Part shown: piece after piece, positions 6,268 through 51,391 of the stretch
Layout of the letters: the number at the start of each line of letters is the position of its first letter
Position numbering within the stretch: position 1 is the stretch's first letter
DNA from: an uncultured Candidatus Saccharibacteria bacterium
GTDB lineage: Bacteria; Patescibacteriota; Minisyncoccia; Minisyncoccales; GWA2-38-27
Direction: 5' to 3'
Length of the DNA stretch: 64,000 nt
NCBI GenBank assembly: GCA_964609075.1
Contig: CAZSQP010000003.1
Location: 36,907 to 100,906, forward strand
Program-made: the position numbers and the translations under genes
Notes under the pieces: generated by a model
Told to the model about the DNA's origin: nothing
The model's input: only the letters and a program-made list of their open reading frames with translations
Database searches by the model: none

Positions 6268-6373
6268 TGTACAGCTGTTTGTATATAAGGAGAAGCTTTA
6301 TTATTTAAATAAAAAGAGCAGAAGGAGAGAACTTCTGCTCTTAAATATGTAAAGAACTACTTTCTTCTTCTTA
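6268..6373. repeat. Copy B of the direct repeat (partner at 5098-5203)
   Basis: Carries a degenerate remnant of the LTD gene 3' end (which gives rise to the spurious + ORF 6110-6352), the same hairpin, and the intact 3' end of the PEP-CTERM gene. About 90% identical to copy A. Confidence 0.7.
6315..6341 (-). terminator. Rho-independent terminator; duplicate of 5145-5171
   Basis: Same hairpin sequence followed by a U-tract on the minus strand. Confidence 0.6.
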
Positions 6374-23447: not shown

Positions 23448-23485
23448 ATCTCCTTTAAAGAGAGTTTTTGTTGATTTTCTCTTTA

Positions 23486-23494
23486 TGATATAAT
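23486..23494 (+). promoter_or_regulatory. Extended -10 promoter element (TGaTATAAT) for the T4SS-like operon
   Basis: tgatataat at 23486-23494, with a possible -35 ttgttg/ttgatt upstream. The ORF-track TTG start at 23498 overlaps the promoter, so ATG 23522 is the more likely start. Confidence 0.35.
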
Positions 23495-23521
23495 TAATTG
23501 AAGATAAAGCTAAAAACAATT

Positions 23522-23920
23522 ATGCCAGATTATCCAAAAGAACAGCTCTGGGAACTCTACCAAGACCTCCCAGAAACCCTCCAGAAAGCCCTCTTTTCCG
23601 AAGAGGTGGCAGACAATATCTATGAGATCTGCCAGAAAAATAAAATAGAAAAAGCTAATGAAATCTCAAGAAACATAGGTTATGTTTTTTCAGGACTTCT
23701 CCCTCCTTCAGAATTTAAAGGGGTTTTATCAGAAGAAATAGGTTTAGACAAAAAGAAAGCAGAAAGCGTTTCAACCGAAATTGAAAGATTTATTTTTCTT
23801 CCTCTTAAAAAGAACCTGGAAGCTCTTTATAAGGAAAAAATAAAAGGTAAAAAAATAAAAAAGAAAGCCTCTTCTAAAAAAACAAAGAAAAAGGATAGCT
23901 ACAGGGAATCTATAGAATAA
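23522..23920 (+). CDS. Hypothetical Lys-rich protein; first gene of the T4SS-like operon
   Basis: ORF in the track (from TTG at 23498); ATG at 23522 preferred. Stop is 1 nt before the next start. Confidence 0.4.
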   Translation: MPDYPKEQLWELYQDLPETLQKALFSEEVADNIYEICQKNKIEKANEISRNIGYVFSGLLPPSEFKGVLSEEIGLDKKKAESVSTEIERFIFLPLKKNLEALYKEKIKGKKIKKKASSKKTKKKDSYRESIE

Positions 23921-23921
23921 T

Positions 23922-24320
23922 ATGCAGTTTACGGTTCCACAATTTATAGAAAGAGAAACTAAAATAGTGGGTCCCCTTACCTTCAAGCAGTTTATTTTTG
24001 TAGGGATTGCCGGGGGTCTTTGCCTTTTTCTATACTTTACTGTTTCTTTCACTACCTTTATAATTCTGACCGTATTAATATTAGGAACAGCTTTTTCTCT
24101 AGCCTTTGTTAAAATTAAGAAGATCCCTCTTCCTGTAATAATCAAGAATTTTTTTTCTTTTCTAACAGAGCCTAAAGTATATCTCTGGAAAAAGAAAACC
24201 AGTCCTCCGAAAATACAAAGAAAAAAAGTTAAAACAATAGAAAAAGAAGAAAAGGAAGAGCCTAAAGTGGTGGGAAGAAGTAAACTTAAAGATCTCTCGA
24301 CAAGACTTAAGATAAAATAA
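23922..24320 (+). CDS. VirB3/PrgI-like small two-TM protein
   Basis: 132 aa with two adjacent TM helices, immediately upstream of virB4. This gene order is typical of Gram-positive-type (MPF-FATA) T4SS. Confidence 0.4.
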   Translation: MQFTVPQFIERETKIVGPLTFKQFIFVGIAGGLCLFLYFTVSFTTFIILTVLILGTAFSLAFVKIKKIPLPVIIKNFFSFLTEPKVYLWKKKTSPPKIQRKKVKTIEKEEKEEPKVVGRSKLKDLSTRLKIK

Positions 24321-24322
24321 TT

Positions 24323-24952
24323 ATGGCCCAGAACACTACCCAGGAATTTCTAAAATTCGATAAGATAAGAGACGGAGTAATAATTCTCAAAAACAAAGGG
24401 CTGAGAATGGTTTTGATGGCTTCTTCTGTAAACTTTGCCTTAAAGTCAGATGAAGAACAACAATCTATTCTTTACGCTTTCCAGAGCTTTCTTAATTCTC
24501 TGGACTTCTCTTGTCAAATAATGGTTAGCTCTAGAAAAATAAATATTACAGGATATTTGGAAAAGTTAGAAGAGATAGAAAAAAAAGAGGAGGAAGAGCT
24601 CTTGCAGATGCAGATCTCAGAATACAATAAATTCATCAGAAACCTTGTCCAAGAAGGATCTATAATGCAAAAAAGCTTCTATGTCACGGTTCCCTTCTCT
24701 TTAGCGGAGACAAAGGGAATATCAACTGCTAAAAAGATAAAAAGAGAAGTAGAACTCACAGAAGTAGAATTTCAAAGAGCAAAGAACCAGCTTCTTCAAA
24801 GAGTAGAATTTGTTATTTTAGGATTAAGGGCTTGCGGAATAGAAGCTGTTCCTTTAAAGAATTTGGAGCTAGCAGAACTCTTTTGGAGTCTACATCATCC
24901 TTTAGAGGCAGAAAGGGGATATTATCCGGAAATACCAACTGACTTAACATGA
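24323..24952 (+). CDS. VirB4/TrbE-family ATPase, N-terminal (CagE_TrbE_VirB-like) segment encoded as a separate ORF
   Basis: 209 aa resembling the N-terminal domain of VirB4. Stop TGA overlaps the next ATG (ATGA). Confidence 0.55.
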   Translation: MAQNTTQEFLKFDKIRDGVIILKNKGLRMVLMASSVNFALKSDEEQQSILYAFQSFLNSLDFSCQIMVSSRKINITGYLEKLEEIEKKEEEELLQMQISEYNKFIRNLVQEGSIMQKSFYVTVPFSLAETKGISTAKKIKREVELTEVEFQRAKNQLLQRVEFVILGLRACGIEAVPLKNLELAELFWSLHHPLEAERGYYPEIPTDLT

Positions 24953-26745
24953 AAATACCTTTCTTAGATAAATTTAAAAAAGATATTCCAGAAGAGGTTA
25001 TTTCTAAAGAACCCCTGCGCATTTCAGATATAGCAGCCCCTTCCTTTATCCAGCTAAAACAGAATTATCTAAAAATAGGAGAAAAGCTAGTTAAGACATA
25101 CTTCGTTTTCTCTTATCCAAGATACCTGCAAACAGGATGGCTTTCCCCCTTGATAAACCTCAATGTTCCTTTGGATGTTTCCTATCATCTTCACCCTGTG
25201 GAAACAGAAGGTATCCTAAAAAAATTAAGAAAACGAGTAACTGAAGTTCAAGCAGAAATAGCAGAAAGGGAAGAAAAAGGACTGATTAGAGATCCAACCT
25301 TGGAAGCTGCCCACCAGAATCTGGAGGAATTAAGGGATAAGCTTCAGACAGCCCAGGAAAGAATGTTCCGTTTTTCTCTTTATGTCACAGTCTACGGAGA
25401 TAATGAAAAAGAATTAAGGGAAACAGAAACCACCTTAAGATCTATTTTGGAGTCAAGGTTGATATATATAAAACCTGCTCTCTACCAGCAGAAAGAAGGC
25501 TTTATATCCTCTTCTCCTTACGGATTAGACATTTTGGGAGTGACTACTTTAATGAACACTTCTCCTTTGTCTTCCACCTTCCCTTTTATTTCCTTTGACT
25601 TAAGTTCTAATGAAGGAATACTTTATGGAATAAACAAGCATAATAATTCTTTGGTTTTATTTGACAGATTCTCTTTACCAAATCCAAATTCTTGTATTTT
25701 CGCAATATCTGGTGCTGGAAAATCATACTTTGTAAAACTTGAAATTTTAAGATCCTTAATGCTGGGAACTGATTGTATTGTCATAGACCCAGAGAACGAA
25801 TACAAGTTCTTATGTGACGCCGTAGGAGGATCTTTCTTTAATATTTCTTTGGCTTCAGACAACCACATTAATCCTTTTGATCTCCCCATTCCAGCAGAAG
25901 ACGAAAACCCAGAGGATGTCTTAAGATCTAATGTGATAAACTTGGTAGGCCTGATAAGGGTTATGCTTGGAGGTCTTTCACCAGAAGAAGATTCTATTAT
26001 AGATAAAGCTATTACAGAAACTTATGCTGCTAAAGATATTACAGCAGACTCTGATCCAAAACAATGGGGCAAAGAACTGCCCTTCCCTACTATGTCAGAT
26101 TTTGAAAGTGTGCTCTCTACTATTGAAGGAGGAGAGTCCCTAGTAAGAAGGATTCAGAGATTTACTACTGGAGCATACTCTAAATTCTTCAACAACCCAT
26201 CTAATGTGGATATGAAAAAGAGAATGGTTGTTTTCGGCATAAGGGATATGGAAGATGAATTAAGACCTATGGCTCTCTTTATTATCTTAAGATACATCTG
26301 GAAGACAGTAACCTCTGAAATGAAAAAGCGCCTTCTAATAATAGATGAGGCCTGGTGGCTTATGAATAATGAGGATGGAGCCTCTTTCCTTTTTGGAACA
26401 GTTAAAAGAGCCAGGAAGTACTGGCTGGGAGTAACTACTATTACCCAGGATATTAACGACTTTATGAAATCTGACTACGGAAAGCCTATTATCACAAACT
26501 CAGCCTTAACCCTTTTGATGAAACAAAGCTCTGCTACTATAGATGTAGTTCAGAAAACATTCAACCTAACAAACGAAGAAAAAATGCTTCTTTTAGAGTC
26601 TCCCGTAGGAGAAGGAATCTTCTTCGCCGGAAACAAACATATTTTAATAAAAGTGAGAGCTTCCTACGCAGAAAATCAGATAATAACCACAGCCCCAGAA
26701 GAAGTTCAGAAGATAAAACAAGCTAAAAAAGAGCTTGAAGGATAA
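24949..26745 (+). CDS. VirB4/TraE/PrgJ-family conjugation-type ATPase (central + C-terminal ATPase domain)
   Basis: Walker A AISGAGKSY, Walker B LLIIDEAWW, and the family C-terminal region (TTITQDINDF). Confidence 0.75.
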   Translation: MKIPFLDKFKKDIPEEVISKEPLRISDIAAPSFIQLKQNYLKIGEKLVKTYFVFSYPRYLQTGWLSPLINLNVPLDVSYHLHPVETEGILKKLRKRVTEVQAEIAEREEKGLIRDPTLEAAHQNLEELRDKLQTAQERMFRFSLYVTVYGDNEKELRETETTLRSILESRLIYIKPALYQQKEGFISSSPYGLDILGVTTLMNTSPLSSTFPFISFDLSSNEGILYGINKHNNSLVLFDRFSLPNPNSCIFAISGAGKSYFVKLEILRSLMLGTDCIVIDPENEYKFLCDAVGGSFFNISLASDNHINPFDLPIPAEDENPEDVLRSNVINLVGLIRVMLGGLSPEEDSIIDKAITETYAAKDITADSDPKQWGKELPFPTMSDFESVLSTIEGGESLVRRIQRFTTGAYSKFFNNPSNVDMKKRMVVFGIRDMEDELRPMALFIILRYIWKTVTSEMKKRLLIIDEAWWLMNNEDGASFLFGTVKRARKYWLGVTTITQDINDFMKSDYGKPIITNSALTLLMKQSSATIDVVQKTFNLTNEEKMLLLESPVGEGIFFAGNKHILIKVRASYAENQIITTAPEEVQKIKQAKKELEG

Positions 26746-27179
26746 TGACAGAAGAAAAAGAACAGAAAGCCCCTTCTCAAAAAGCTCCCCCTAAAGAAAA
26801 AGGCGCTTCAGAGGAAGCAGCTAATGAGATCGAGAGAATAGGAAACTTTATAAGCTTATACGGAATAATAATGTTTTCTATGGCTATAGTTTTAGATCTA
26901 GTAGGCCTCATTCTCTTAGTTCTAAGTTTTTTAGGCATAGGAATCCCTTTGTCCTTTATTCCTGACGTTATTGGTCTTGTCTTTATAGGAGGATTAATGC
27001 TATTGAGTCCTAGTGGAGGAGTAGTAGTTTCCAAAGGAGCAAATAAACTTAGCAAAAAGATAGCTAAAAAAATAGGGAAAAAAATAGGGCTCTCTTTCTT
27101 AGTAGAGCTTGTCCCTTTTGTTGGAGACATAGCCCCCTCCTGGACTGTAGCCGTTTACCTTCACTTAAAAGGCAGTTAA
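26745..27179 (+). CDS. Small polytopic membrane protein of the T4SS-like operon
   Basis: 144 aa with 3-4 predicted TM helices; start overlaps the virB4 stop (TAATG). Confidence 0.4.
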   Translation: MTEEKEQKAPSQKAPPKEKGASEEAANEIERIGNFISLYGIIMFSMAIVLDLVGLILLVLSFLGIGIPLSFIPDVIGLVFIGGLMLLSPSGGVVVSKGANKLSKKIAKKIGKKIGLSFLVELVPFVGDIAPSWTVAVYLHLKGS

Positions 27180-27182
27180 TTT

Positions 27183-30100
27183 ATGGGAAAAAAGAAGCAA
27201 ATAATTTTATTCTGTCTTTTGCTCCTTTTGTTCTCTTTAGGAGCAGATTTTGTTTTAGCTTTAGAAATCAATTATCCTAATTTACCTGATACAGAACCTC
27301 CTCAAGACTTTCTCCAAAGACTTTCTCCAAATGAAGCTCTTCCTTTATATGTTGATTACTTTTTCAAGCTGGCTATCTGGATACTGGGTTTTGTAGCTTT
27401 TGGAGTTATGGTTTATGGAGGAGCTCTCTATTTAATCTCAACAGGAGAACCTGACAAGTTAGTTAAAGCTAGGGAGTTTATTTCTTCCTCTTTTTTTGGC
27501 ATTCTTATCCTTTTAACCTCCTACCTTGTTCTTTCTGTAATAAATCCAGATCTTGTTAATTTAGAAGCTCCAGAAATAGAAGAATTTACAATAGAAAGAG
27601 AACCGGAAGTCCCAGAGCCTAAAATTTTAGCTGCCAACACTTCTATTCACGTAGAGCTGCCTTTCGGAAGATTAATTGAAGGGGACATTTTTGAAACATA
27701 CATTTCAGATCCAAATGCTGTCCAGGGAAGAACGCCGAGATTGAGTAGAATTAAGAGTAATGCTAGTTCCACAATAGATATTGCCTCAAAGCTTTCTCAA
27801 AACAGCCAGCAACTGAGCAGCTTGGCTCAAAGCTGCGACTGTAGCCAGGCAGAACCTGTTTGTCCGAACTGCCAGCCTCAGGGAGCTACTCCTCTCTCTA
27901 ATATTTTGGGTCTTGAAGGAATGGGTGTTTTTTCCCAGATAACAGACAATCTTTCTGATATATTAGGAGAAGGGAATTTGGGTCCAGCTTTAGGTCTTTC
28001 AGAAGCTGTCTCTCGGGGCACAGGAAACATTGGAGAGCTTTCCAGCGTTTTGGATTCAATAGACCAAATTTCAAAAGATTTAAGCTTGTCTCAAAACCTA
28101 CCTCAAGCCTTTGAAATAGGAGGAGAAATAGCTTCTATAACCCAAAACCCCCAAGAACTTACAGGTATGGTCAATTCTATTGAGAATATGAGTCAGATAG
28201 CGGGTCTAGGAAATTTTCAGGAAGCTTTTAATATAGCTACCCAGGCAGCTTTGATAGCGGAGAACCCGGAAAACCTAACTAGTGTTCTGACTTCTGCAGA
28301 AAACATTACAGATATTACAGGAATTACCGGAGACCTTGGAGATACCTATAATATAGGGTATAACATAGCTTCTATAGTAGACAGCCCAAATAGCTATTCT
28401 TCTGTAGTAGGATCTATTGCTAACATCACAGGCATGCTCGACGTTCCGAGAGATCTCTCCGGCGTTTTCAGTACAGCTTATGATATGGCTTCTGTGGCAG
28501 ATAATCCTGCCAATATAGTGCCCCTTTTAAACTCCAACAAGAAAATAGCTAACATCCTAGGAAGCTCTAACAGAATGGAGGATGTTTTTAATGTTGGATA
28601 CAACGTAGCCTTAATAGCAGAGAACCCAGATCAATACTCCACCATAGTTGGAGCCGCCTCTAATATAACGGATATCATGGAAGCCCCAGTAAACCTAGGA
28701 GAGTCTTTCGGTATTGCTTATGATATAGCTTCTATTGCAGAAGAACCATCTAATATCTCTAGAACTTTTTCTTCTTTAGAAAATATAAATAGAACCATTG
28801 ACTCCCCAAATTATCTCAGACCTGCTTTTAAAACAGTTAGAGACTTAGGGTCTATTGTAAGAAACCAGAATAACCTAGAAAGTGTTCTTCTTTCTTCAGA
28901 AGAAATTGCCAGAAGAGTCAATGATTCAGATGATTTATTCAGAGCTTTTGAAAAAGCTCATGAAGCGACTGAAATAGTTGAAGATTACCAAAGATATCCA
29001 GAACTTGTAGAATCTATGGGAAGATTGAGCAGGATATTTGAAAACCCGGCTCATTTAGAGCAGGTTTTAGAAATAGCAAAAGAGAAAGATCTGGCTGAAG
29101 ATCCAGAAGAGCTCGTTGAGGCCTTAAGGGAAGATCCTGATTTCAGACATGTTGTTCCCCAAGAAGATATGGATAAAACTTTAGAGGAAATAGAAAATAT
29201 TGCAGAGAGAACTGACAGATTTGATGAAGTAGAAAGAATAACCAGAGAAGTTGAAAACATTGTACCTAATACAGGTAGTTTAGCTGATGTTTTTGAAAGA
29301 GTAGGAAGCGTTTCCCGTTTGACAGAAAACCCTGATGACTTAAGGAATATCTCTCTTGTATTAGAAGACTTTTCATACTTATCTGAAGACACAGAAGAAG
29401 CAGCTTTTCTTTTAGAAGAGTTCAGAGAAATATCTTTAATTACTCGTGATCTTTCTGACATAGAAAACCTTGAAAACCTAGCTGTAGAACTTAGTTATCT
29501 GGCAGGAGACCATTACGGATTCAACGAAGTTTTAAGGAACTTCGGAGGAGTGGCATCTGTTATCCAGGAGCCAGAAGATTTAAGAAATATACAATATGCC
29601 ATGGAAGATCTTTCTACAATTGTCCCAGAGTTAGAAGGCATGAGCTCTGTCTTAGAGAATTTTCAGGGAATAGGAACCCTTATTCAAGATCCCCAGGATA
29701 TGGGAAACATTAGAATGGCTATGACAGATCTTTCCCATGTTTTTCCTCAAGCAGGAGAGCTTTCTGACTTTTTAGGAGAATATTCTGGTATAGCCTCTTT
29801 AGTTGAAGACCCAACAGACTTTCAGAATATTCAAGCAGCTGCAGACAACCTTTCTGAAATTCTACCTCAGACAGGAAATCTTTCACAATATTTTGATAAT
29901 CTAGAAGGAATAGCTTCTTACGTTCAAGATCCAACTGATTTTCAGGGCCTTCAAGGAGCTCTTAGCGACTTATCTCAAATTCTGCCCGAGGCAGGTCAGC
30001 TTTCTGATTTTTTGGGGCAATACGAAAATTTAGCCTCGGTTATCCAGGACCCTACAGATCTAGCCAATATTCAAGGAGGATTAGAGGATCTTTCTCAGGT

Positions 30101-31493
30101 CATACCTCAAGCAGGAGAGCTTTCTGACTTTTTGGGAGAATATGCCGGAATAGCCAGTATTATTAATGATCCTCTTAACACAACGAATATAATGAATGCT
30201 GCCTCAAATCTTTCTCAAATAGCCCCTCAGCTTTCACCTGTTATGGGAGAGCTTAAAAGCTTAGGAGGGCTTTTTGGAGGACCTCAGGGAATTACCGGAG
30301 CTTTTTCTTCCGGTTCTTGCAACTGTGATACCTGTAAAAGCGTAAGAGGAGAAATAGAAAAGCTTCAGTTAGAAAACGTAGACAGCTTAATACCTTCTTT
30401 AAAAACAGAACAACAAAAGACGATAAGAGAAAGAGAAGACCTGGAAGAACAAATGGACAGATTAGAGAGGGCAGCAAAGTTTATCAATGCTTGCCCTTAC
30501 ACCCTAAAAGAAAGTTTAAGCCGCTTTTATCCAACTAAAGAATCTTACATCTCTAATAGAAGTGGAATTGTAAGGCAATTTCCTTTTTGGGACGACATCA
30601 TAATCCCTTATCTCACAGAACAAAACGAAACAGTTTCAGAATGGGCTTCTTTTCTTTGTATTATTGGAGGAAACATTCTTTCTGTAGCTAACCCAGTAGA
30701 ACATATGGGAGAAGCTTCCATCACAGGAGAATCTAGAACCTGTTTTAACGAAATACCTGTAGGAGACATCATAGAGAGAACTTTAAGAACAGCGAACCTC
30801 ATGACTCAGAAAATGGACCAAATTGTGTCTTTGGACAGAGAATTAATCTCGGAGATAGACAAGCTTCATGTTTTAATAAGCAACTGTACCTCTCAAGCCC
30901 CTCCCTGTTTTTCTGTCTGTATATGCGTTCCCTGTGAACATGGAGGAGGATGCTGTCCTTGCCTTAAATGGTGCGAAGGATCTGCCTGTCCATACGGGGA
31001 GATAAAAGATCAGGCTAAAAAGATTCAGCAGATTATAAATAGGAAAAACGGCTTGAGCTATACTATCAACAACCCGAACCCAGCTTCTCAACAAGGAATG
31101 CAAAATCAAGTCAAAGAGGGTATAGGATTAAACCCTATTATCGACACTATTGTTCCCGCTATCTTGCAAGACCTCCAGACCGAAGTAAGACATCCTATGA
31201 TGGCCTGCGAACCTCAGCAACACGAAGGAAACCTTATCCCCTGCAACAGAGCTGTAGGAAGAACTACTCCTGAAGGATTAATTCAAGGATGCGCTCAAGA
31301 TGAAGAGTTCTTTAACCCCTGCATTGAAAAGTGCTATCTTGAAGAAACCCAAGAAGAATATACCAACTGCCTCGAAAGCTGCCTTCTAATTCAAAAAGGG
31401 GTTTATTCTAATTTAGAGGGATCCGATGAAATTCCTAATTATCATCACGAATTAAACTTTTTCTGTTGCCCCGCAGAAACCTCGCCTAGATAA
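27183..31493 (+). CDS. Giant (1436-aa) secreted protein: N-terminal two-helix pilin-like (TrbC/VirB2-like) domain, a CxC motif, about 25 degenerate ~40-aa helical repeats, and a Cys-rich C-terminal domain
   Basis: Signal peptide; LEINYP; TM-loop(TGEPDK)-TM-INPDL module shared with 31496, 32698 and 51365. Repeats of the type DPxDxxNIQxAxxDLSxIxPQxGxLSDFLGEYxGIASxV. C-terminal Cys clusters CICVPCEHGGGCCPCLKWCEGSACP. Confidence 0.55.
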   Translation: MGKKKQIILFCLLLLLFSLGADFVLALEINYPNLPDTEPPQDFLQRLSPNEALPLYVDYFFKLAIWILGFVAFGVMVYGGALYLISTGEPDKLVKAREFISSSFFGILILLTSYLVLSVINPDLVNLEAPEIEEFTIEREPEVPEPKILAANTSIHVELPFGRLIEGDIFETYISDPNAVQGRTPRLSRIKSNASSTIDIASKLSQNSQQLSSLAQSCDCSQAEPVCPNCQPQGATPLSNILGLEGMGVFSQITDNLSDILGEGNLGPALGLSEAVSRGTGNIGELSSVLDSIDQISKDLSLSQNLPQAFEIGGEIASITQNPQELTGMVNSIENMSQIAGLGNFQEAFNIATQAALIAENPENLTSVLTSAENITDITGITGDLGDTYNIGYNIASIVDSPNSYSSVVGSIANITGMLDVPRDLSGVFSTAYDMASVADNPANIVPLLNSNKKIANILGSSNRMEDVFNVGYNVALIAENPDQYSTIVGAASNITDIMEAPVNLGESFGIAYDIASIAEEPSNISRTFSSLENINRTIDSPNYLRPAFKTVRDLGSIVRNQNNLESVLLSSEEIARRVNDSDDLFRAFEKAHEATEIVEDYQRYPELVESMGRLSRIFENPAHLEQVLEIAKEKDLAEDPEELVEALREDPDFRHVVPQEDMDKTLEEIENIAERTDRFDEVERITREVENIVPNTGSLADVFERVGSVSRLTENPDDLRNISLVLEDFSYLSEDTEEAAFLLEEFREISLITRDLSDIENLENLAVELSYLAGDHYGFNEVLRNFGGVASVIQEPEDLRNIQYAMEDLSTIVPELEGMSSVLENFQGIGTLIQDPQDMGNIRMAMTDLSHVFPQAGELSDFLGEYSGIASLVEDPTDFQNIQAAADNLSEILPQTGNLSQYFDNLEGIASYVQDPTDFQGLQGALSDLSQILPEAGQLSDFLGQYENLASVIQDPTDLANIQGGLEDLSQVIPQAGELSDFLGEYAGIASIINDPLNTTNIMNAASNLSQIAPQLSPVMGELKSLGGLFGGPQGITGAFSSGSCNCDTCKSVRGEIEKLQLENVDSLIPSLKTEQQKTIREREDLEEQMDRLERAAKFINACPYTLKESLSRFYPTKESYISNRSGIVRQFPFWDDIIIPYLTEQNETVSEWASFLCIIGGNILSVANPVEHMGEASITGESRTCFNEIPVGDIIERTLRTANLMTQKMDQIVSLDRELISEIDKLHVLISNCTSQAPPCFSVCICVPCEHGGGCCPCLKWCEGSACPYGEIKDQAKKIQQIINRKNGLSYTINNPNPASQQGMQNQVKEGIGLNPIIDTIVPAILQDLQTEVRHPMMACEPQQHEGNLIPCNRAVGRTTPEGLIQGCAQDEEFFNPCIEKCYLEETQEEYTNCLESCLLIQKGVYSNLEGSDEIPNYHHELNFFCCPAETSPR

Positions 31494-31495
31494 AA

Positions 31496-32701
31496 ATGAT
31501 TAGAGATAAAAAGAAAATATTAATAATTCTAGTTCTTTTTCTCCTCCTCTCTTTTGGTTTTGCTTTTGCCCAAAGAGATCTAGAAGTTGATTACCCCGGT
31601 TTTAATCCCTCTAGCACAGAGGATATTTTACCAGAGTATGTAGAATATATTTTCTATTTTATAGTATCTCTCTCAGGTTTTCTGGCTTTAGCATTTATGA
31701 TCTATGCGGGTACCCGCTATCTAACTTCGGCGGGAGACCCTTCAAAAATGCAAGAAGCCAAAGAACAATTAATTTCAGCTTCCTGGGGAATTCTTATCAT
31801 CTTAGCTTCCTACCTAATATTAGCGAATATAAATCCTCAGTTGACCTTAATAAAATTAGAAGTAGAGGATGTAGGAGAGATGCCTGCTCCAGAAGAGTCG
31901 CCTCCTGTAGCTCCTCCTGCCTATCCCAACTATTTATGGCGTATAAGTGAAATAGCAAACAGCACAAAACTTGTTATAGACCAAGAAAAAGGACTTATAA
32001 AATCAGCGGGACGCCTTCATTCTTTAACTAATAGATGCAACTGCAGTTTAACTAACCCTCTCTGCCTTTGCAGGTCATACATGGGAGGGGGTTGCCAGGC
32101 TGTTTACTGCTATGCTGGTTCTAAAAACCAACCCTGCCCTGACGAAGAAGGAATTAAAGAAGAGCAGCAGAATGTAATTGCCTCTTTCTCAGAATTGCTA
32201 TATTATAGAAAAAGAGCTGTAACAGAAAGAGAAGACTTCCTTTTACATATTAATGATCTAGAAAAGAAGATTCAGTTTTATGAAGAGAGGATATCTGTCG
32301 AGAAAAGCGACTATATTAAAGGAAAGCTTCAGGAAAGTTTGCAGACAGCTCAGGAACAGAGAGAACTTTACTTACAGCTTGAAGAAAAACTTAAAGAACT
32401 TTCTGAGTTAATCGTAGGAGCTTCTCTGGCAGCATCAAAACTCTCTAAACTGCCAGACGGAACAGAAGGAATACCAGGCTGTTTAGAAAATGTTAAAACG
32501 TTGTGTACAGGAACCTGCGCTGGAGGATGCCACAATACCTTGGAATGCTCTCCTATAAGCTGTTCTGGAGGTAATCCCTGCCCTATGCCCCAGATTATTC
32601 AAGAGAAGCAGACAGTTAACTCTTTTGGAAATAGAATTAAAGGGGTTTGCGATCAAATATTAACAATACTAGAACAAACAGAAACTGTTATCGTAAAATG
32701 A
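31496..32701 (+). CDS. Secreted protein: the same N-terminal pilin-like domain plus CNCS...CLC motif, coiled coil, and Cys-rich C-terminus (short paralog of 27183)
   Basis: LEVDYP...TM...YLTSAGDPSKM...TM...INPQL; stop overlaps the next start (ATGA). Confidence 0.5.
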   Translation: MIRDKKKILIILVLFLLLSFGFAFAQRDLEVDYPGFNPSSTEDILPEYVEYIFYFIVSLSGFLALAFMIYAGTRYLTSAGDPSKMQEAKEQLISASWGILIILASYLILANINPQLTLIKLEVEDVGEMPAPEESPPVAPPAYPNYLWRISEIANSTKLVIDQEKGLIKSAGRLHSLTNRCNCSLTNPLCLCRSYMGGGCQAVYCYAGSKNQPCPDEEGIKEEQQNVIASFSELLYYRKRAVTEREDFLLHINDLEKKIQFYEERISVEKSDYIKGKLQESLQTAQEQRELYLQLEEKLKELSELIVGASLAASKLSKLPDGTEGIPGCLENVKTLCTGTCAGGCHNTLECSPISCSGGNPCPMPQIIQEKQTVNSFGNRIKGVCDQILTILEQTETVIVK

Positions 32702-33921
32702 AAAGAATACTACTCATCATACTTTTTCTTTCTTTTTTCTCTCTAGTCGGGATTTGTTTCGCCCAGACTTCTTTAGAAGTAGATTATCCTTCTATTAGAG
32801 GATATGAAATAACAGAAGAAACTGTTACTTTTGGTAAATACATAAAATATATTTATCTTTTTGTTATAGCTATAAGCGGATTCATAGGATTAGGGGTTCT
32901 AATCTGGGCAGGTTTTAAATATATGACTTCTTCTGGAAATCCTGAAAGAATGGGGGACGCTAAAGACTGGATTACTAGAGCCCTAATAGGCCTTTTGATT
33001 ATCTTTCTTTCCTGGATAATAGTTAATACTATAAATCCAGAGCTTACTGTTTTAACAACGAAACCTACCGTTCCTTTCATTTCAGATCTCCCCAGAGGAG
33101 TGGTTTTATGCGAAAAACAGGTTGATTTAAATGGGGCTTGGCAGATTGTCCAAGAATATAAAGACCTTGATATTTCTTCTGATACTATAGATCGAAGAAA
33201 ACAATTAAAAGAAGATTTTGAAACCATAATGCAGGAAGTAATTCCAAACTGTATTTCCAGAACCGGAGCTGTAACAGGACTTACCAGAGATTTTAGATAT
33301 ATCTATCTAGTTCCCACAGAAAATAGAAATTATGGAGCTATAGCTTTTAAAAAATCAGGTTTTAGAGGAGAATTACAGATGTTTATGCCAGTAGAAGGAG
33401 ACCAACCGGTTTTAGGTAGACCAGTTGAGAAAACAATCAACTTAGACGATGTAGCTTCCGTTTACTCTTTTGCCTTAAATACAAATCCTGACCCCTCTTG
33501 GGGTGTTACTCTATACTCTGAAGAAAACTTCAATTACGCCCTTGATAAGCCCTGTGTAGAATATTCTATTGGAGGAGGAAGCTCGAGTGGTTGTGATCCT
33601 GGTAATATAAATTGGATTGAAAGTATAGGAATTGGCGCTCCAACCTCTATTAAAGATCAACTAGAAGGGAAAAGTCCCGAATCTTTAAGAATAGAAGGGA
33701 ATCTACTAGTGATTTTGACAAAAGACCCTAACGCTAAAGCTTCAGATCCTGGAACATATACTGTAAAAAAAGAAAGCGATCCCTCGCTTCTAAATGATGA
33801 TCCTATTATAAACTGGAGACCCTCTATCAGGAATATAAATCCGGAAGATAAGGGTTTGGAGCCTGTAGCTGCGGCCCAAAAGATGATAATCGTATCTTAT
33901 TCAACCGATTTAAGCGATTAA
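32698..33921 (+). CDS. Secreted protein: the same N-terminal pilin-like domain plus a roughly 290-aa non-Cys-rich extracellular domain
   Basis: LEVDYP...TM...YMTSSGNPERM...TM...INPEL. The ATG at 32698 (MKRILLIIL) is preferred over the track start at 32647. Confidence 0.5.
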   Translation: MKRILLIILFLSFFSLVGICFAQTSLEVDYPSIRGYEITEETVTFGKYIKYIYLFVIAISGFIGLGVLIWAGFKYMTSSGNPERMGDAKDWITRALIGLLIIFLSWIIVNTINPELTVLTTKPTVPFISDLPRGVVLCEKQVDLNGAWQIVQEYKDLDISSDTIDRRKQLKEDFETIMQEVIPNCISRTGAVTGLTRDFRYIYLVPTENRNYGAIAFKKSGFRGELQMFMPVEGDQPVLGRPVEKTINLDDVASVYSFALNTNPDPSWGVTLYSEENFNYALDKPCVEYSIGGGSSSGCDPGNINWIESIGIGAPTSIKDQLEGKSPESLRIEGNLLVILTKDPNAKASDPGTYTVKKESDPSLLNDDPIINWRPSIRNINPEDKGLEPVAAAQKMIIVSYSTDLSD

Positions 33922-40272: not shown

Positions 40273-42603
40273 TTATTTTTTATCTGATGGCTTTCTTCCT
40301 CCCGAGGGGAGATCAGAAGCCTTGCCAGGAGAACTAGAGCTTCCCCTCTTTCTTATTTCTTTTTTTAATTTTCGCCCTCTAAGACGGTCATATACTTTTT
40401 CTTTTTCATATCTTGCTCTAGCCTCTCTCTCCCTTCTTTTTTCTTCCTCTGGGGGCAAAGAAGATTCCCTAATAAGGGTGTCTACACCCTCTTTTGTGGT
40501 TATCGTTCCACCTTTTCCTCCTGCTCTTTTCCAATCATTTAAATAAGCTTGGCCTCCAGGGGTGTAAGCTACTTTTAAGAAAGAAGGGTTAGTTCTTGCC
40601 ATTTCTTTTAGTCCTACTCTTTCTTGAGCTGTTTTTTGGATATTAGCTACATGTTTCCCTCCTTTTGTTTCTCCTATTTCTCTAATAATAGACCAAGAGG
40701 CGTACTTGGCGAGAGCTTCTTGGAGCCCTTCATTATTAAGTGTTTTGTCATCTAAATTTTCAACATCTGGCTTCTTAAGCGCCTTTGCGGCCTTCTTAAA
40801 GGCAGCTTTTGCTTTGGCTGTTCCTTTATCGACCCCACTCTTCATCTGTTCTATAATATCATCTTCGTCTGCGAGATTATTTTGTATTAGTTCTCCAAGC
40901 TGATCATCTTCTATAAGTTCTGGTTTGTGTTTTATAAGGTTATCTAGGCTATTGGGAGTATATCTATCAGTTTGTTTGATTATACTGCGCAAGTCAGTTT
41001 CCGGTAGAGCATTAAGACCTTTTGCTCCCTTAGTCTCAGCTAAAGCTTGAGCACCCGCCATTTTTCCTGTGTAGTTTGTTGCAGATAGAGAAGATACGTA
41101 AGCTGCCATGCTTTTATAGTCTTTGCCAAACCTTTTCTTAATCTTCTCTTTATCCTCATTAACTCTATCTTGTATACCGGCTCCATAAGATAAAGCAGCA
41201 GCACCCAATTTTCTTTTTGCGTAACCGAAAGGAGTAGCAGCCTTTCCTAGAAAAGCTCCAACTTTACCTGCTTTAGTTTTAGCGTCCTTAACGCGCGGAA
41301 TTTGTCTTCTAGCAACCCATCTGGATGCTTTTTTACCCCACTCGCTGGTGAGGGCACGACCAGCGGTCTGTCTCGCCAGGCCTTTCCCTCCTCTTATAGC
41401 TCCTTTCCCTCCTTTTTTGGTTAAGTCAATAACGCTACTAGCTCCCATAGCACTAATGGAAACTGCCATAAAGAAGCCCATCACTAAAAAGATTATTACT
41501 ACCCCAAAAGGAAGTATCTCATTCAACAGTCCCCAATCGCTTTCTTGGCTTTGAATGTCGGTATTAATACGAGCTTCTCCTGTTTTTTGAACAAAGGAAT
41601 TAGTATCTAGCTCGGCTAACATATGAACTGAGAGATAGATAAAGAAAGCAGCTATTACTCCTATAAAACACCAAGCAAGAAACTGCTTCCACCACATATC
41701 AAAGAAAGTTCTTGTTTTAGGAAGGATGTAAGCAACAAAAGCTAAGGGTGAAAGTATTACCGCTATCCAAATAGCTATATAGCGAAAAGCAAAAAGAGCA
41801 GCAAATAAAAAGAAGATGAGGCCAGCTATTATAGAAAAAACAACAAGAACAGCCACCTTGCCAAGGATTCCAAGTTGGCCGGTTAAATTGTTTGCGTCGG
41901 TCTCTGACCAAGCATCCCGGACGCTATTTCCTACCTGACTAAATCCATTTCCCAAACTAGCAAAATCTAGAACGCCATCAGATCCAGAGCTCAGAAGAAA
42001 GTCCATCAGGATGTTAGAGGCATCAACGATAACGCCTAGAAGAACAGGAGCAAAGTTTATCAAAAGGGCTATAATTATCAGGGTGGGTAATGTCTTTTTG
42101 GCCTGATAACTTTCTAGTCTTAAAATAGTAGCTAATCCTATAACGATCAAAGCTAAAACAATCCCCATATTAGCCAAGTTACTAGTTACATTCCACCCTA
42201 GTTCTATAATGGGGTTGTCTAGTCCTGTATAAGAGAGAGAAATAAAGTCAGGGCTCATCACCCATTCCAAGATAAAAGCTGATAAAGAAACCCATAAAGT
42301 AGCGAGAGAAAGAGCTAGGGTAGCTATAAGCGTAGTAATAATTCTTAGAAGGCTTCCTAAAGAAGCTTCAAAAGCTTTTTTAGCTAAGTCTCCCAAAAGA
42401 CTGCTCTCTTTATTCCCTTCATACGCCTCAGATTCTGGTCCTAAATAACTAGAAGGAGAAGTGCCTCCCTGAGCCAGTTTGACAGGTTTAGTTTCAGCAA
42501 TTGTTGTTTGGCAAGTGAAAACAAGAGAAACTAGTATAATTAAAAACAACAGAAATCCCTTTTTCCTTAAAAATCCAGTTAGTATATTCAACTTATCCAC
42601 CAT
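40273..42603 (-). CDS. Large polytopic membrane protein with a long Lys-rich C-terminal tail; VirB6/TrbL-like topology
   Basis: Signal/TM, periplasmic segment, at least 6 TM helices, then about 380 aa of hydrophilic tail. Start placed at the internal Met (MVDKLN) to avoid overlapping ksgA. Confidence 0.35.
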   Translation of the reverse strand: MVDKLNILTGFLRKKGFLLFLIILVSLVFTCQTTIAETKPVKLAQGGTSPSSYLGPESEAYEGNKESSLLGDLAKKAFEASLGSLLRIITTLIATLALSLATLWVSLSAFILEWVMSPDFISLSYTGLDNPIIELGWNVTSNLANMGIVLALIVIGLATILRLESYQAKKTLPTLIIIALLINFAPVLLGVIVDASNILMDFLLSSGSDGVLDFASLGNGFSQVGNSVRDAWSETDANNLTGQLGILGKVAVLVVFSIIAGLIFFLFAALFAFRYIAIWIAVILSPLAFVAYILPKTRTFFDMWWKQFLAWCFIGVIAAFFIYLSVHMLAELDTNSFVQKTGEARINTDIQSQESDWGLLNEILPFGVVIIFLVMGFFMAVSISAMGASSVIDLTKKGGKGAIRGGKGLARQTAGRALTSEWGKKASRWVARRQIPRVKDAKTKAGKVGAFLGKAATPFGYAKRKLGAAALSYGAGIQDRVNEDKEKIKKRFGKDYKSMAAYVSSLSATNYTGKMAGAQALAETKGAKGLNALPETDLRSIIKQTDRYTPNSLDNLIKHKPELIEDDQLGELIQNNLADEDDIIEQMKSGVDKGTAKAKAAFKKAAKALKKPDVENLDDKTLNNEGLQEALAKYASWSIIREIGETKGGKHVANIQKTAQERVGLKEMARTNPSFLKVAYTPGGQAYLNDWKRAGGKGGTITTKEGVDTLIRESSLPPEEEKRREREARARYEKEKVYDRLRGRKLKKEIRKRGSSSSPGKASDLPSGGRKPSDKK

Positions 42604-42622
42604 TAAGATATTATAGCAAAAG

Positions 42623-43426
42623 TTAAAATAAAGTGCCAAATGAATTAGCAAGTTTTACCCAGTCTTTGATAGATAAAGTTTCAGCCCTGGCTTTAGGGTT
42701 AAGGCCCTCTTTTAGAAGAATTCTTTTAATTTTATCTTTATCAACTTCTTTTGAAAGATTATTTAAGAGCTGTTTTCTGGGTTGGGAAAAGCCCAGCTTA
42801 ACTATTTTGAAAAATAAATTGCTGTCTACCTTATATTTATATTCAGGAGTGATCTTTAAAAAAGAGCTGTCTACTTTCGGTTTTGGCCAAAAGGAGTTTT
42901 TAGAAACATTAAAAAGTATTTCAGGGTTTCCGTAAAACTGAACAGAAACAGCCAAGATGCTCATATTAGGAGGAGAAGCTGTTATTCTTTCTGCTACTTC
43001 TTTTTGAACCATTAAGTATATTTCTTTTAAAGAGGCCTCTTCTAAAAGCTTTCTTATAACAGGAGAAACTATATAGTAGGGAAGGTTGGCTACTACTTTA
43101 AAATCTTTAAATTGAGAAAGATCTATTTTAAGGATGTCTTTGTTTAGAACTTTCACATTGTTGACATCAGAAAGAGTTTTCTTTAATATCTTACACATTA
43201 AGGGATCTTTTTCTACGGATATAATCTTTTTAGCTTTTTGAGAAAGCCCTAAAGTAAGAGCTCCTAAGCCGGGGCCTATCTCTAGAACAGAATCTTCTGA
43301 AACATCAACAGATTCTAATATTTTTGAAAGAATATTTTTGTCTACAAGAAAGTTCTGACCTAGCCTTTTAGAGGGGCGAACGCCTTCAAGCAATTCCTTT
43401 ATTTTTTTCTTGGAAGTTAAGTCCAT
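42623..43426 (-). CDS. rsmA: 16S rRNA (adenine1518/1519-N6)-dimethyltransferase
   Basis: LGQNFLVD...LEIGPGLGALT motifs. Confidence 0.85.
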   Translation of the reverse strand: MDLTSKKKIKELLEGVRPSKRLGQNFLVDKNILSKILESVDVSEDSVLEIGPGLGALTLGLSQKAKKIISVEKDPLMCKILKKTLSDVNNVKVLNKDILKIDLSQFKDFKVVANLPYYIVSPVIRKLLEEASLKEIYLMVQKEVAERITASPPNMSILAVSVQFYGNPEILFNVSKNSFWPKPKVDSSFLKITPEYKYKVDSNLFFKIVKLGFSQPRKQLLNNLSKEVDKDKIKRILLKEGLNPKARAETLSIKDWVKLANSFGTLF

Positions 43427-43654: not shown

Positions 43655-44647
43655 TTGTTAACCGTTGTTCTTTTCTCTGGTTTGGTTCTAGGGTCAAATG
43701 CAGTCTTAAAATTCCTTCCTCTCAAGGAATTTTCTTTTTTGACAGCAAATTGTTCAAGTAGTATTTCTTTAAATAAGGTCTTTGCAGAGCCTGCCAGAAA
43801 CTTTCTTACAGACTCTCCTGATGTTGTTTTTTCCCAGGAGAATAGTATTTTAGGGTATGCTCCCCATGCCGTGGTTAATCCTCAGGTTTTAGGAAGCTTG
43901 AGTAGTTCTTCTCAGAATAAAGAGATAAGGGAATATCTTATTAAGGAAGGAGATACTATATCTTCTTTAGCAGAGGAGTTTGATATTTCCGTGGAGACAA
44001 TACTTTGGGCTAATGATTTAAGCAGTAGTTCTATAATAAAGCCGGGAGAAGAGCTCCTTATACTCCCTACTTCAGGTGTTTTATATATGGTTAAGAAGGG
44101 AGATACTTTAAGTACTATAGCTCAAAGATACAAAGGAGATGTTGAGGAAATGGTTTCTTACAATAGTCTTGAGAGCGAAGAAGATATTTTTGTAGGAGAT
44201 ATTATTCTTATTCCTGGAGGAAAAGAACCAAAGGAAACTCCGAAGATTAGTTCCGCGCCTATTGCCGATTCCTACTTTATGTTTCCTTGCGAGGGAGAGA
44301 TAAGTCAAGGACTTCATGGGGCTTTCGGCAATGCTATTGATATCGCTAATAAATGCGGCAAACCTGTTGTAGCTGCTGCTGGAGGAACTGTACAGAGAGC
44401 AGGATGGATAACAATCGGCGGTCAAAGAGTGACCATTCTTCATTCCAACGGAGTAGTAAGTTATTACGGCCACCTTTCAGCTATAAATGTTGTTCCCGGA
44501 CAAAAGGTTAATAGAGGAGAGATTATAGGGTATATAGGAAATACCGGATATACAATTGGTATGACAGGTTGTCATCTTCACTTTGAAGTAAGAGGAGCAA
44601 GGAACTTTTTATCAAACTATAGCGTAGGCAGTCATATAAACTGGTAG
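43655..44647 (+). CDS. Secreted peptidoglycan hydrolase: two LysM domains + M23 metallopeptidase
   Basis: Two LysM repeats (YLIKEGDTISSLAEEF; YMVKKGDTLSTIAQRY) and M23 His motifs (HLHFEV). Confidence 0.8.
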   Translation: MLTVVLFSGLVLGSNAVLKFLPLKEFSFLTANCSSSISLNKVFAEPARNFLTDSPDVVFSQENSILGYAPHAVVNPQVLGSLSSSSQNKEIREYLIKEGDTISSLAEEFDISVETILWANDLSSSSIIKPGEELLILPTSGVLYMVKKGDTLSTIAQRYKGDVEEMVSYNSLESEEDIFVGDIILIPGGKEPKETPKISSAPIADSYFMFPCEGEISQGLHGAFGNAIDIANKCGKPVVAAAGGTVQRAGWITIGGQRVTILHSNGVVSYYGHLSAINVVPGQKVNRGEIIGYIGNTGYTIGMTGCHLHFEVRGARNFLSNYSVGSHINW

Positions 44648-44698: not shown

Positions 44699-45067
44699 CT
44701 ATTTTGCGCACTTTGCGCACTTTTCAGCTTCAGGGTAGGATTTTAGCCTCTTCTCCTCTATTTTCTTTCCACAGCTTTCGCATTTTCCATACTTTCCCTT
44801 TTTTATCTTACCTAGAGCTTTATTTACTTTTTGGAGGCGCAATTCAAGACTGTGCTCTATGGGTAATAGGGTAGCGTACTTTTCCACTTGGTCTGCTGCA
44901 TCTTCTAAAGCTTGGCTGCCTACTCCGCTGTCTACTTCTGGAAACCTAGTGTCCCAGTCCCCCTCAAGCTTTTTATCTTTAGAGGCAAAGCTTTCAAGAT
45001 CTGATTCGAGATTCTTCTTTTCTTTCTCTAGTTTTTCTTTTAATTCTTTTTCTAAACTCTTTTTCAT
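44699..45067 (-). CDS. DksA/TraR-family C4 zinc-finger protein
   Basis: Cx2Cx17Cx2C (CESCGKK...KCAKC) at the C-terminus of a coiled-coil protein. Confidence 0.6.
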   Translation of the reverse strand: MKKSLEKELKEKLEKEKKNLESDLESFASKDKKLEGDWDTRFPEVDSGVGSQALEDAADQVEKYATLLPIEHSLELRLQKVNKALGKIKKGKYGKCESCGKKIEEKRLKSYPEAEKCAKCAK

Positions 45068-51273: not shown

Positions 51274-51318
51274 ATCTTCTTTTATTATACATTTTTTATT
51301 TAAAATAAAAAGAGGTTG

Positions 51319-51391
51319 TGCCCCCACTAGGGCTCGAACCTAGAACAAACTGCTTAAGAGGCAGCTACTCTTCCAATTGAGTTATGGGGGC
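51319..51391 (-). tRNA. tRNA-Lys (anticodon CUU)
   Basis: Manual fold: acceptor GCCCCCA/TGGGGGC, D-stem ACTC/GAGT, anticodon stem GCTGC/GCAGT with loop CT-CTT-AA, T-arm CTAGG-TTCGAGC-CCTAG, discriminator A. Confidence 0.8.

Follow-up and report, generated by a model that had tools for sequence, protein, structure and literature searches.

We analyzed a 64,000-nt stretch of DNA (hereafter, the window) from contig CAZSQP010000003.1, which is labeled as belonging to an uncultured Candidatus Saccharibacteria bacterium. Our subject is a run of eight open reading frames (ORFs) on the plus strand at 23.5 to 33.9 kb, here designated g1 to g8, which encodes proteins related to type IV secretion systems (T4SS) and ends in three genes whose products join a pilin-type module to large C-terminal passenger domains. 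An earlier interpretation made from the letters of this DNA and a list of its ORFs (the sequence-only reading) had proposed eight consecutive plus-strand genes at this position, and all eight ORFs were found. Exact look-up of the g8 protein found a record that led us to an independent public assembly of the locus (Logan SRR15425350, L081), in which the gene calls are the same (132, 132, 209, 598, 144, 1436, 401, and 407 aa). Exact look-up of the g4 protein returned no record.

A T4SS-type operon beside dnaA

The eight genes are tightly coupled. From first to last, the spacings are +1 nt (g1/g2), +2 nt (g2/g3), -4 nt with an ATGA overlap (g3/g4), -1 nt with a TAATG overlap (g4/g5), +3 nt (g5/g6), +2 nt (g6/g7), and -4 nt with a further ATGA overlap (g7/g8). 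The sequence-only reading had described all of these genes as joined by overlaps of 1 to 4 nt; the tight coupling is as described, but true overlaps occur at only three of the seven junctions, the other four being gaps of 1 to 3 nt. Similarly, two of the three lengths it gave for the large proteins (1436, 401, and 408 aa) stand, and the last is corrected to 407 aa, counted from the ATG at 32698. Judging from the sequence around its start, g1 most likely begins at the ATG at 23522, which gives a protein of 132 aa, 3′ of a promoter-like element at 23471 to 23494 (+). This element includes an extended -10 motif (TGaTATAAT, 23486 to 23494) and lies within the 50-nt gap 3′ of the neighboring gene for a class A penicillin-binding protein (PBP). 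It was read by eye and is weak evidence; a consensus promoter scanner did not list it, the -35 spacing being off.

The upstream neighbors of the operon are the PBP gene (PBP1A) and tyrS. Downstream lie jag/khpB, yidC, yidD, rnpA, a 44-aa ORF, dnaA, and dnaN, with the start of dnaA (35940) 2 kb beyond the operon; ksgA is also near. The 44-aa ORF occupies the position expected of rpmH and is a candidate for that gene by position alone. Given these housekeeping flanks, the operon is chromosomal and sits beside the replication-initiator genes.

Using the VirB4 protein (g4) as the query against species-representative genomes, we obtained 80 related loci with 64 to 89% identity. All 80 come from metagenome-assembled genomes (MAGs) of uncultured organisms, and nearly all are labeled Ca. 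Nealsonbacteria, Paceibacterota, Patescibacteria, or “uncultured Saccharibacteria” (the last from one assembly series); a few are assigned elsewhere, for example to Pseudomonadota or Pacearchaeota. In the NCBI taxonomy, Nealsonbacteria belong to the Parcubacteria group within the Patescibacteria group. The closest loci are often titled “uncultured Candidatus Saccharibacteria bacterium” (one third-party annotation assembly series), whereas equally similar loci are assigned to Nealsonbacteria or Paceibacterota. Because equally similar loci bear conflicting names, we regard the record labels as unreliable at the class level.

The first five genes correspond to a conserved T4SS core. The conserved first gene of the cluster, g1 (23522 to 23920, +), encodes a soluble protein for which no transmembrane (TM) segment is predicted. 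Its C-terminal tail is Lys rich, as the sequence-only reading had it, with 15 Lys within the final 40 residues. Homologues of g1 lie directly 5′ of the PrgI gene in 57 of the 80 related loci, and scans of Pfam, NCBIfam, and the PDB, including those made with a 31-member family, gave no consistent match. The next gene, g2 (23922 to 24320, +; 132 aa), had been proposed to encode a VirB3-like protein with two TM helices; two TM segments are predicted, the protein passes the cut-off of the PrgI family PF12666 (E = 2.4e-8; 34.8 bits, cut-off 27), and it is kept in 74 of the 80 loci. The product of g3 (24323 to 24952, +; 209 aa) is a TrsD-type homologue of the VirB4 N-terminal domain. It aligns with positions 2 to 125 of the 752-position NF045971 model (CD1110-family VirB4), has a weak match to NF041427 (TrsD), and carries a PF26593 (TraC-like) match on its database record.

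A VirB4-family ATPase of the MPF_FATA-like CD1110 type is encoded by g4 (24949 to 26745, +; 598 aa). It covers positions 178 to 732 of NF045971 with 369 bits (cut-off 325), matches PF19044 (E = 8e-25), and contains Walker A (AISGAGKS) and Walker B (LLIIDE) motifs. The proposed similarity of the ATPase to VirB4 is thus upheld by a profile hidden Markov model (HMM) above its cut-off. The sequence-only reading had called g3 and g4 a split VirB4. The homology behind this description is correct, with g3 corresponding to the N-terminal part and g4 to the remainder; however, the arrangement is not a local oddity, since g3-type TrsD is a separate gene in 75 of the 80 loci and the two genes therefore represent the known, conserved TrsD and VirB4 pair. 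The small membrane protein predicted to follow VirB4 is encoded by g5 (26745 to 27179, +; 144 aa) and has a hydrophobic core. In 30 related loci, a g5 homologue separates VirB4 from the first pilin gene, and g5 has no Pfam or NCBIfam family match.

Family scans of the window covered about 46 ORFs with Pfam and 2 with NCBIfam only, ORFs shorter than 110 aa being mostly outside the scan. Among these approximately 48 ORFs, we detected no Pfam or NCBIfam match to relaxase, VirD4/type IV coupling protein (T4CP), or VirB8 families, in agreement with the sequence-only reading, and the 64-kb window contains no integrase. These absences bear on whether the operon is the conjugation module of an integrated integrative and conjugative element (ICE). 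Such an origin would account for two resemblances: among VirB4 models, those nearest to g4 are the conjugative CD1110 and Mycoplasma-ICE ones, and the pilin module described below resembles the Mycoplasma ICE Mbov_0395 pilin-like family. However, in addition to the missing relaxase, T4CP, and integrase, the operon is set between PBP1A/tyrS and jag/yidC/rnpA/dnaA in a context conserved in related genomes, and its GC content is that of its flanks. We conclude that the window does not hold a simple conjugation module of the known, relaxase-bearing kind; the mobile-element explanation is largely refuted and highly improbable.

Pilin modules fused to large passenger domains

The last three genes are g6 (27183 to 31493, +; 1436 aa), g7 (31496 to 32701, +; 401 aa), and g8 (32698 to 33921, +; 407 aa). 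The claim that their products all start with the same signal peptide and two-helix module is borne out by BLASTP, by PF18895 (T4SS_pilin), and by a clade-specific profile that we built from 60 modules of related loci. The common N-terminal module runs from a signal peptide through the invariant motif LE(V/I)(D/N)YP, helix 1, a Y(L/M)(T/I)S.G.P loop, and helix 2 to INP.L, with 29 to 40% identity among g6, g7, and g8 (BLASTP E = 6e-23 and 9e-28). Against PF18895 (cut-off 26.6 bits), g7 and g8 pass with 35 and 40 bits. The g6 protein scores 16 bits, below the threshold, yet it reaches 107 bits with the clade-specific profile, and its module is 30% identical to that of g7. Of the 60 clade modules, 59 match PF18895 and 8 match the TrbC/VirB2 family PF04956 at E ≤ 0.1 (best 5e-5). 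In addition, g8 scores 35.7 bits, near the threshold, against NF045849 (Mycoplasma ICE pilin-like) and 15 bits against PF04956 (TrbC; cut-off 27.9). NCBI names a 409-aa g8-type protein simply “pilin”. As we use it here, this label rests on sequence membership in PF18895 and on genomic context, not on a demonstrated relation to solved pili.

Canonical VirB2-type pilins are small, consisting essentially of the hairpin only. The three proteins encoded here are 401 to 1436 aa long and have their hairpin within the first 120 to 130 aa or so, which confirms that g6, g7, and g8 are fusions of pilin modules to large passengers. We know of no VirB2, TrbC, or TraA pilin with a C-terminal domain of 280 to 1300 aa. 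The passengers bear hallmarks of extracellular proteins, namely the preceding signal peptides and many conserved Cys residues. A VirB5/TraC-like fold, as in VirB5-type tip adhesins, was not found in them.

Behind the signal peptide and two-helix module (aa 1 to 126), the g6 protein has a CxCx6CxxC motif (aa 218 to 230) and then a repeat array, followed by a CxCxxC motif, a coiled-coil segment, and a C-terminal domain that is rich in Cys and ends in NFFCC. Located between the two Cys motifs, the array (aa 237 to 1036; 27891 to 30290, +) comprises approximately 20 repeats of 40 aa with an exact period and no indels, giving autocorrelation peaks at 40, 80, and 120. It is strongly acidic, and the net charge of g6 downstream of the pilin module is -127. 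Pro and Gly cluster at a few fixed positions of the repeat, a pattern that suggests a unit of two helices in a helix-turn-helix-like arrangement. The array is visible only at the protein level and was missed by a DNA-level tandem-repeat search. The repeat is rare, with matches in 43 of 1.84 billion cluster representatives at E ≤ 1e-3, and the best matches are proteins of 1124 to 1195 aa with the same pilin-repeat-Cys-rich architecture. Given that g6-type proteins without the array are commoner and shorter (about 610 to 750 aa), the g6 of the window is a repeat-expanded version. In the sole related locus with the 40-aa repeat (L013:12333-15864), the g6 orthologue is divided between two overlapping ORFs of 440 and 783 aa, which points to a frameshift or to misassembly within the array. 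Orthologues of the C-terminal domain, with about 20 conserved Cys, occur in 16 loci.

The g6 and g7 proteins align with each other from the pilin module to the first CxC motif, and hhalign matches their C-terminal helix and Cys knot with 98% probability (E = 8.6e-14). By these alignments, they are paralogues with Cys-rich helical-bundle passengers. The g7 passenger family has 14 invariant Cys and a GGNPCP motif. An AlphaFold2 model of g7 built with 17 sequences has a mean predicted local distance difference test (pLDDT) score of 80.8, with most of the passenger above 90. The model predicts the pilin hairpin (residues 47 to 77 and 82 to 111), a disordered linker (116 to 143), an elongated five-helix bundle in which two helices are 47 to 52 residues long, and two Cys-rich beta knobs. 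In six related loci (L002, L003, L004, L005, L006, and L011), the g7 orthologue lacks both the signal peptide and LEVDYP, and in L002 helix 1 opens the protein, whose start lies only 5 nt beyond the stop codon of g6; therefore, N-terminal processing of g7 differs among close relatives.

Weak structural neighbors of the g7 passenger include the alpha-pore-forming toxins XaxA, ClyA, and AhlC. This likeness raises the question of whether g6, g7, and g8 could be secreted effectors, that is, T4SS substrates or toxins directed at a host, for example membrane-active helical-bundle proteins. We consider this very unlikely, because Sec signal peptides followed by a conserved membrane hairpin are unlike T4SS substrates and because the three-gene set is kept in order across loci.

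The passenger of g8 appears to be mixed alpha/beta and has no Pfam match. Orthologues occur in 10 loci, and an AlphaFold2 model made from just 5 homologues has a mean pLDDT of 51, which is too low for fold assignment. The motifs YGAI.YE..F.G and W.V.LY, together with the existence of crystallin-fused PF18895 proteins, prompted us to consider a beta-gamma-crystallin fold; no member of the g8 family matches PF00030, and we rejected this candidate. The crystallin fusions themselves are Patescibacteria proteins (P0043 and P0069) in which the same N-terminal module is followed by beta-gamma-crystallin (PF00030) and Cys-rich repeat passengers. Thus, the PF18895 module has been combined with several unrelated extracellular domains.

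Relation to described T4SS and possible assembly of the fusions

The gene order g1-PrgI-TrsD-VirB4-(g5)-pilin genes is conserved in approximately 60 to 75 of the related Patescibacteria MAG loci, and the pilin module is linked with VirB4, TrsD, and PrgI in about 60. About 15 closer loci carry g6-, g7-, and g8-type passengers (all three in 10 of them); farther from the window locus, two pilin-module genes are the usual number. We detected 121 pilin-module ORFs in the related loci, with a median length of about 440 aa; most exceed 300 aa, the module is N-terminal in nearly all, and only three are shorter than 130 aa, at least two of these lying at contig ends. Median identity to the window proteins across 15 loci falls from VirB4 (77%) through TrsD (66%), PBP (65%), PrgI (53%), g1 (46%), and the pilin modules (44 to 45%) to the passengers (27 to 32%). 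The passengers have diverged much faster than VirB4, as expected of exposed, host-interacting parts.

A further T4SS component lies outside the operon. The sequence-only reading had suggested a search for VirB6 homologues in the rest of the genome, and a candidate is present inside the window, at 40273 to 42651 on the minus strand: a VirB6/TrbL-like polytopic membrane protein of 776 to 792 aa with about seven TM segments. Its record carries PF19590 (TrbL_3). Scanned directly, the protein of the window matches no Pfam family at E ≤ 0.1, and 4 of 23 members of its family match PF04610 (TrbL/VirB6). Its homologues, present in 32 of the 80 loci, lie mostly upstream of VirB4 on the same strand and often directly before g1; in the window, the gene is displaced from the operon across the jag-yidC-rnpA-dnaA-dnaN block. 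Considering its family and position in these loci, this ORF likely encodes the VirB6 equivalent, a channel subunit of the T4SS.

Much of this arrangement is already known. Quinonero-Coronel et al. 2025 (PMC12102498) described Patescibacteria T4SS in which VirB4 forms a clade sister to MPF_FATA, TrsD is the most abundant partner along with PrgI/VirB3 and VirB6, and VirB2-like pilins (PF04956, PF18895) form arrays of 2 to 11 genes with approximately 25% identity. In that study, relaxases are almost absent, T4CP genes are usually elsewhere in the genome, and the T4SS lies near dnaA, dnaN, rnpA, ksgA, and rpmH in Paceibacteria and Microgenomatia. In Ca. Southlakia epibionticum, the one organism tested, epibiotic growth requires both the T4SS and its pilin array, as shown by Wang et al. 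2023 (PMC10633639) and also covered in a 2025 review (PMC12857230). The suggestion that the system is new therefore does not hold: chromosomal, relaxase-less Patescibacteria T4SS have been published (PMC12102498, PMC10633639, PMC12857230), and the core of our finding is already known because PMC12102498 describes the same gene set, arrays, and proximity to dnaA.

By its sequence, the locus belongs with this clade of T4SS in every respect that we compared: it has an MPF_FATA-type VirB4, separate TrsD and PrgI, a pilin array, a VirB6-like protein, and no relaxase or T4CP in the cluster near dnaA. Like the Patescibacteria T4SS, for which the cluster of Ca. Southlakia epibionticum ML1 (SEML1_0006-0019) is the experimentally essential example, it combines an MPF_FATA-related VirB4 with separate TrsD and PrgI/VirB3, a VirB6-like protein, and a divergent PF18895 pilin array; the cluster is free of relaxase and coupling-protein genes and is located near dnaA, dnaN, rnpA, and ksgA. 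The pilins differ, however. Those of Ca. Southlakia are small (about 127 to 185 aa; pilin genes of 384 to 435 nt) and have the module near the C-terminus, whereas the window proteins are 401 to 1436 aa long and have an N-terminal module followed by large C-terminal passengers. Text searches of Patescibacteria T4SS papers (PMC12102498, PMC10633639, and PMC12857230 among them) found no mention of a pilin module joined to a large domain. With its rod of rare 40-aa repeats, the passenger-fused pilin trio is a real variant and the only part of the locus that these papers do not describe.

Three other groups of systems are useful for comparison. The Gram-positive MPF_FATA systems (TrsC/TrsD/TrsE of pGO1, PrgI/PrgJ of pCF10, CD1110 of Clostridioides CTn2, and Mbov_0395/0397 of the Mycoplasma ICE) resemble the locus in that its VirB4 passes the CD1110-family model and has TrsD- and PrgI-like partners, and in the case of the Mycoplasma ICE, in the near-threshold similarity of the pilin module to NF045849. 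They differ in that the window lacks a relaxase, T4CP, VirB8-like protein, and PrgB-type adhesin and is not on a mobile element; furthermore, Gram-positive MPF_FATA systems are generally without pilin-family genes (PMC12857230), which the window locus has. The VirB2/TrbC/TraA pilins of Gram-negative bacteria share the order of a signal peptide and then a two-helix hydrophobic hairpin, VirB3- and VirB4-type neighbors, and the weak PF04956 similarity seen in 8 of the 60 modules, but the window modules have no sequence match to solved pilins. Tandem divergent pilin paralogues are also known from the Bartonella Trw and Anaplasma T4SS, where they are read as an adaptation to host surfaces (PMC12102498); there, the amplified VirB2/VirB5 paralogues remain small pilins, and it is the pilin that varies rather than any appended domain. 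We also considered the “Pam pilus” of the candidate phyla radiation (CPR) (10.64898/2026.03.03.709456), which is an Ig-fold, donor-strand system unrelated to T4SS.

Taken together, the family matches, the housekeeping flanks, the conserved order, and the lack of relaxase and T4CP in the window agree with the proposal of a non-conjugative T4SS-type module. We consider it probable that the region is the core operon of a chromosomal, non-conjugative, MPF_FATA-derived Patescibacteria T4SS in a Nealsonbacteria-like genome and that its pilin modules display passengers. Its role is likely that of a T4SS-linked surface structure for host contact. Under this interpretation, Sec/YidC would insert g6, g7, and g8, and the signal peptides would be cleaved just before LE(V/I)(D/N)YP, leaving the two-helix hairpin in the membrane and the Cys-rich passenger, presumably with disulfide bonds, on the outside. 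By analogy with established T4SS biology, VirB4, docked via PrgI and TrsD on the VirB6-like platform, would then extract the pilin modules, which would be assembled into a short fiber or tip complex whose surface is formed by the passenger domains. The g6 rod of 20 repeats of 40 aa would project the Cys-rich head outward from the cell, and the fast-diverging passengers would give recognition of host surfaces in an episymbiotic lifestyle. In addition, the channel may exchange macromolecules with the host, through effector export or the import of host macromolecules.

A more specific and more tentative proposal, which we hold with less than even confidence, is that the VirB2-like module serves as a general N-terminal “assembly handle”. 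The T4SS would use it to display or polymerize large, rapidly evolving host-recognition domains as a heteromeric fiber or tip, with the g6 array as a length-tunable spacer. Within the conserved trio, the Cys-rich head would come from the g6-type protein, the helical bundle from the g7 type, and a further domain from the g8 type. If true, this would amount to a T4SS-built adhesive organelle unlike any characterized T4SS pilus. Apart from this proposal, the locus and its relatives show that in one large clade of Parcubacteria, the “pilins” are carriers of big, Cys-rich, fast-diverging extracellular domains rather than small subunits. The locus points to host-surface recognition as a main task of the pilin array, and the g6-, g7-, and g8-type passengers are concrete candidates for host-specificity determinants and for structural work. 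The overall picture of Patescibacteria T4SS, being already published, is unchanged.

Several observations weigh against a pilus-like assembly of these proteins or against the T4SS interpretation more broadly. Two-helix hairpins match HMMs promiscuously, given that 13 of the 60 modules also match Htr2, an unrelated two-TM family. The comparison of the module with T4SS pilins, which the sequence-only reading had named as a check, came out divided: PF18895 accepts g7 and g8, and the clade-specific profile accepts g6, but the matches to the VirB2/TrbC family PF04956 remain below its curated threshold, and a search of PDB sequences with the module profile found no VirB2 or TraA pilin, the sole matches being to different two-TM proteins, with E > 2. 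Because the interhelical loop shows no clear positive charge, the passenger topology described above is based on the signal peptides and Cys content only. No experiment in any organism shows polymerization of a PF18895 protein, a 2025 review calls pilus formation by Patescibacteria T4SS an “intriguing possibility” (PMC12857230), and the T4CP search covers the 64-kb window. Finally, by rough geometric reasoning, a VirB2-type helical lattice would not easily accommodate subunits that each carry a domain of 280 to 1300 aa. Therefore, g6, g7, and g8 may be minor or tip subunits or may not polymerize at all, and a short heteromeric fiber or tip, or membrane-anchored display, seems more plausible than a long homopolymeric pilus.

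The promiscuous hairpin matches and the lattice misfit are also what one would expect if the PF18895 module were a membrane anchor and g6, g7, and g8 were ordinary surface adhesin or spacer proteins, sharing expression with the T4SS as PrgB-type adhesins do in Gram-positive conjugation systems but neither extracted nor polymerized by VirB4. The fusion of this module to many unrelated passengers, such as the beta-gamma-crystallin domains of P0043 and P0069, fits the same explanation. However, the module is conserved far beyond the needs of a simple anchor, both in its invariant motifs (LE.DYP, Y..S.G.P, INP.L) and in its identity across loci compared with the passengers (44 to 45% versus 27 to 32%). 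Its strict linkage to VirB4, TrsD, and PrgI in about 60 loci and the essentiality of small pilins of the same family along with the T4SS in Ca. Southlakia (PMC10633639) likewise speak against it. We regard an anchor-only role as possible but doubtful.

A separate question is what the channel would carry. A 2024 perspective calls the function of Patescibacteria T4SS “completely unknown” (PMC11665869), and an import machine for host DNA, nucleotides, or other macromolecules, comparable to Helicobacter ComB, has been proposed for Patescibacteria (PMC12102498, PMC11665869). The fusions would then only dock the channel to the host envelope, which is compatible with either structural model of the fusions. 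The lack of relaxase and T4CP near the operon and the reduced biosynthetic capacity of Patescibacteria (PMC12102498, PMC11665869) are consistent with import, but the operon encodes no ComEC-like or DNA-binding component, the Lys-rich tail of g1 being the sole candidate nucleic-acid binder. An import function is in our judgment unlikely.

Other genes of the window

Beyond the operon and the VirB6-like gene, the window contains further genes with a possible connection to T4SS. An ORF at 43655 to 44647 (+) encodes a protein with LysM and M23 peptidase domains by Pfam, a candidate cell-wall hydrolase whose homologues occur near VirB4 in 19 loci. By this association, it is a candidate stand-in for VirB1; the same suggestion has been made for CPR (PMC12102498). 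A peptidoglycan-binding protein is also encoded near the T4SS, with homologues in 10 related loci. At 44699 to 45067 (-) lies a gene for a DksA/TraR-type zinc-finger protein, possibly a regulator by association, with homologues near the T4SS cluster in 12 loci.

A fourth PF18895 protein, of 278 aa, is encoded at 51365 to 52201 (-). It matches PF18895 at aa 170 to 231 (28 bits) and the clade-specific profile with E = 1e-5, and its layout is reversed: the signal peptide is followed by roughly 120 aa of acidic, low-complexity sequence and a CPx6CGx3CPCx2C motif, and the two-helix module comes last, at the C-terminus. In this layout, it is closer to the small Saccharibacteria-type pilins than g6, g7, and g8 are. 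The last 27 nt of its gene overlap a tRNA-Lys gene (51318 to 51391) on the same strand.

Other predicted envelope proteins lie at the beginning of the window. These are a type II/IV secretion ATPase (PilB-like, T2SSE; 1211 to 2509, +), a protein that combines a lamin-tail domain with a TM helix at its C-terminus (4001 to 5137, +), a beta-propeller-repeat protein with a PEP-CTERM-like tail (6357 to 7373, -), and a 1496-aa protein (7449 to 11939, -) that has PKD/Ig-like domains as well as a signal peptide and, near its middle (aa 655 to 704), two hydrophobic segments. The last of these has no match to the pilin-module profile and is possibly another large surface protein.

Lys, Glu, and Arg make up nearly all of a 501-aa ORF at 46892 to 48397 (-), in which EARKEAEERKRKEE is repeated. 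This ORF has no TM segment and only a weak SMC-like coiled-coil match, and its composition accounts for the extreme AT skew (-0.44) of this stretch. GC skew is negative from approximately 44 to 52 kb and strongly positive from approximately 52 kb, so that the sign switches about 16 kb from dnaA (35940) rather than at dnaA, an offset that may be explained by gene-strand bias.

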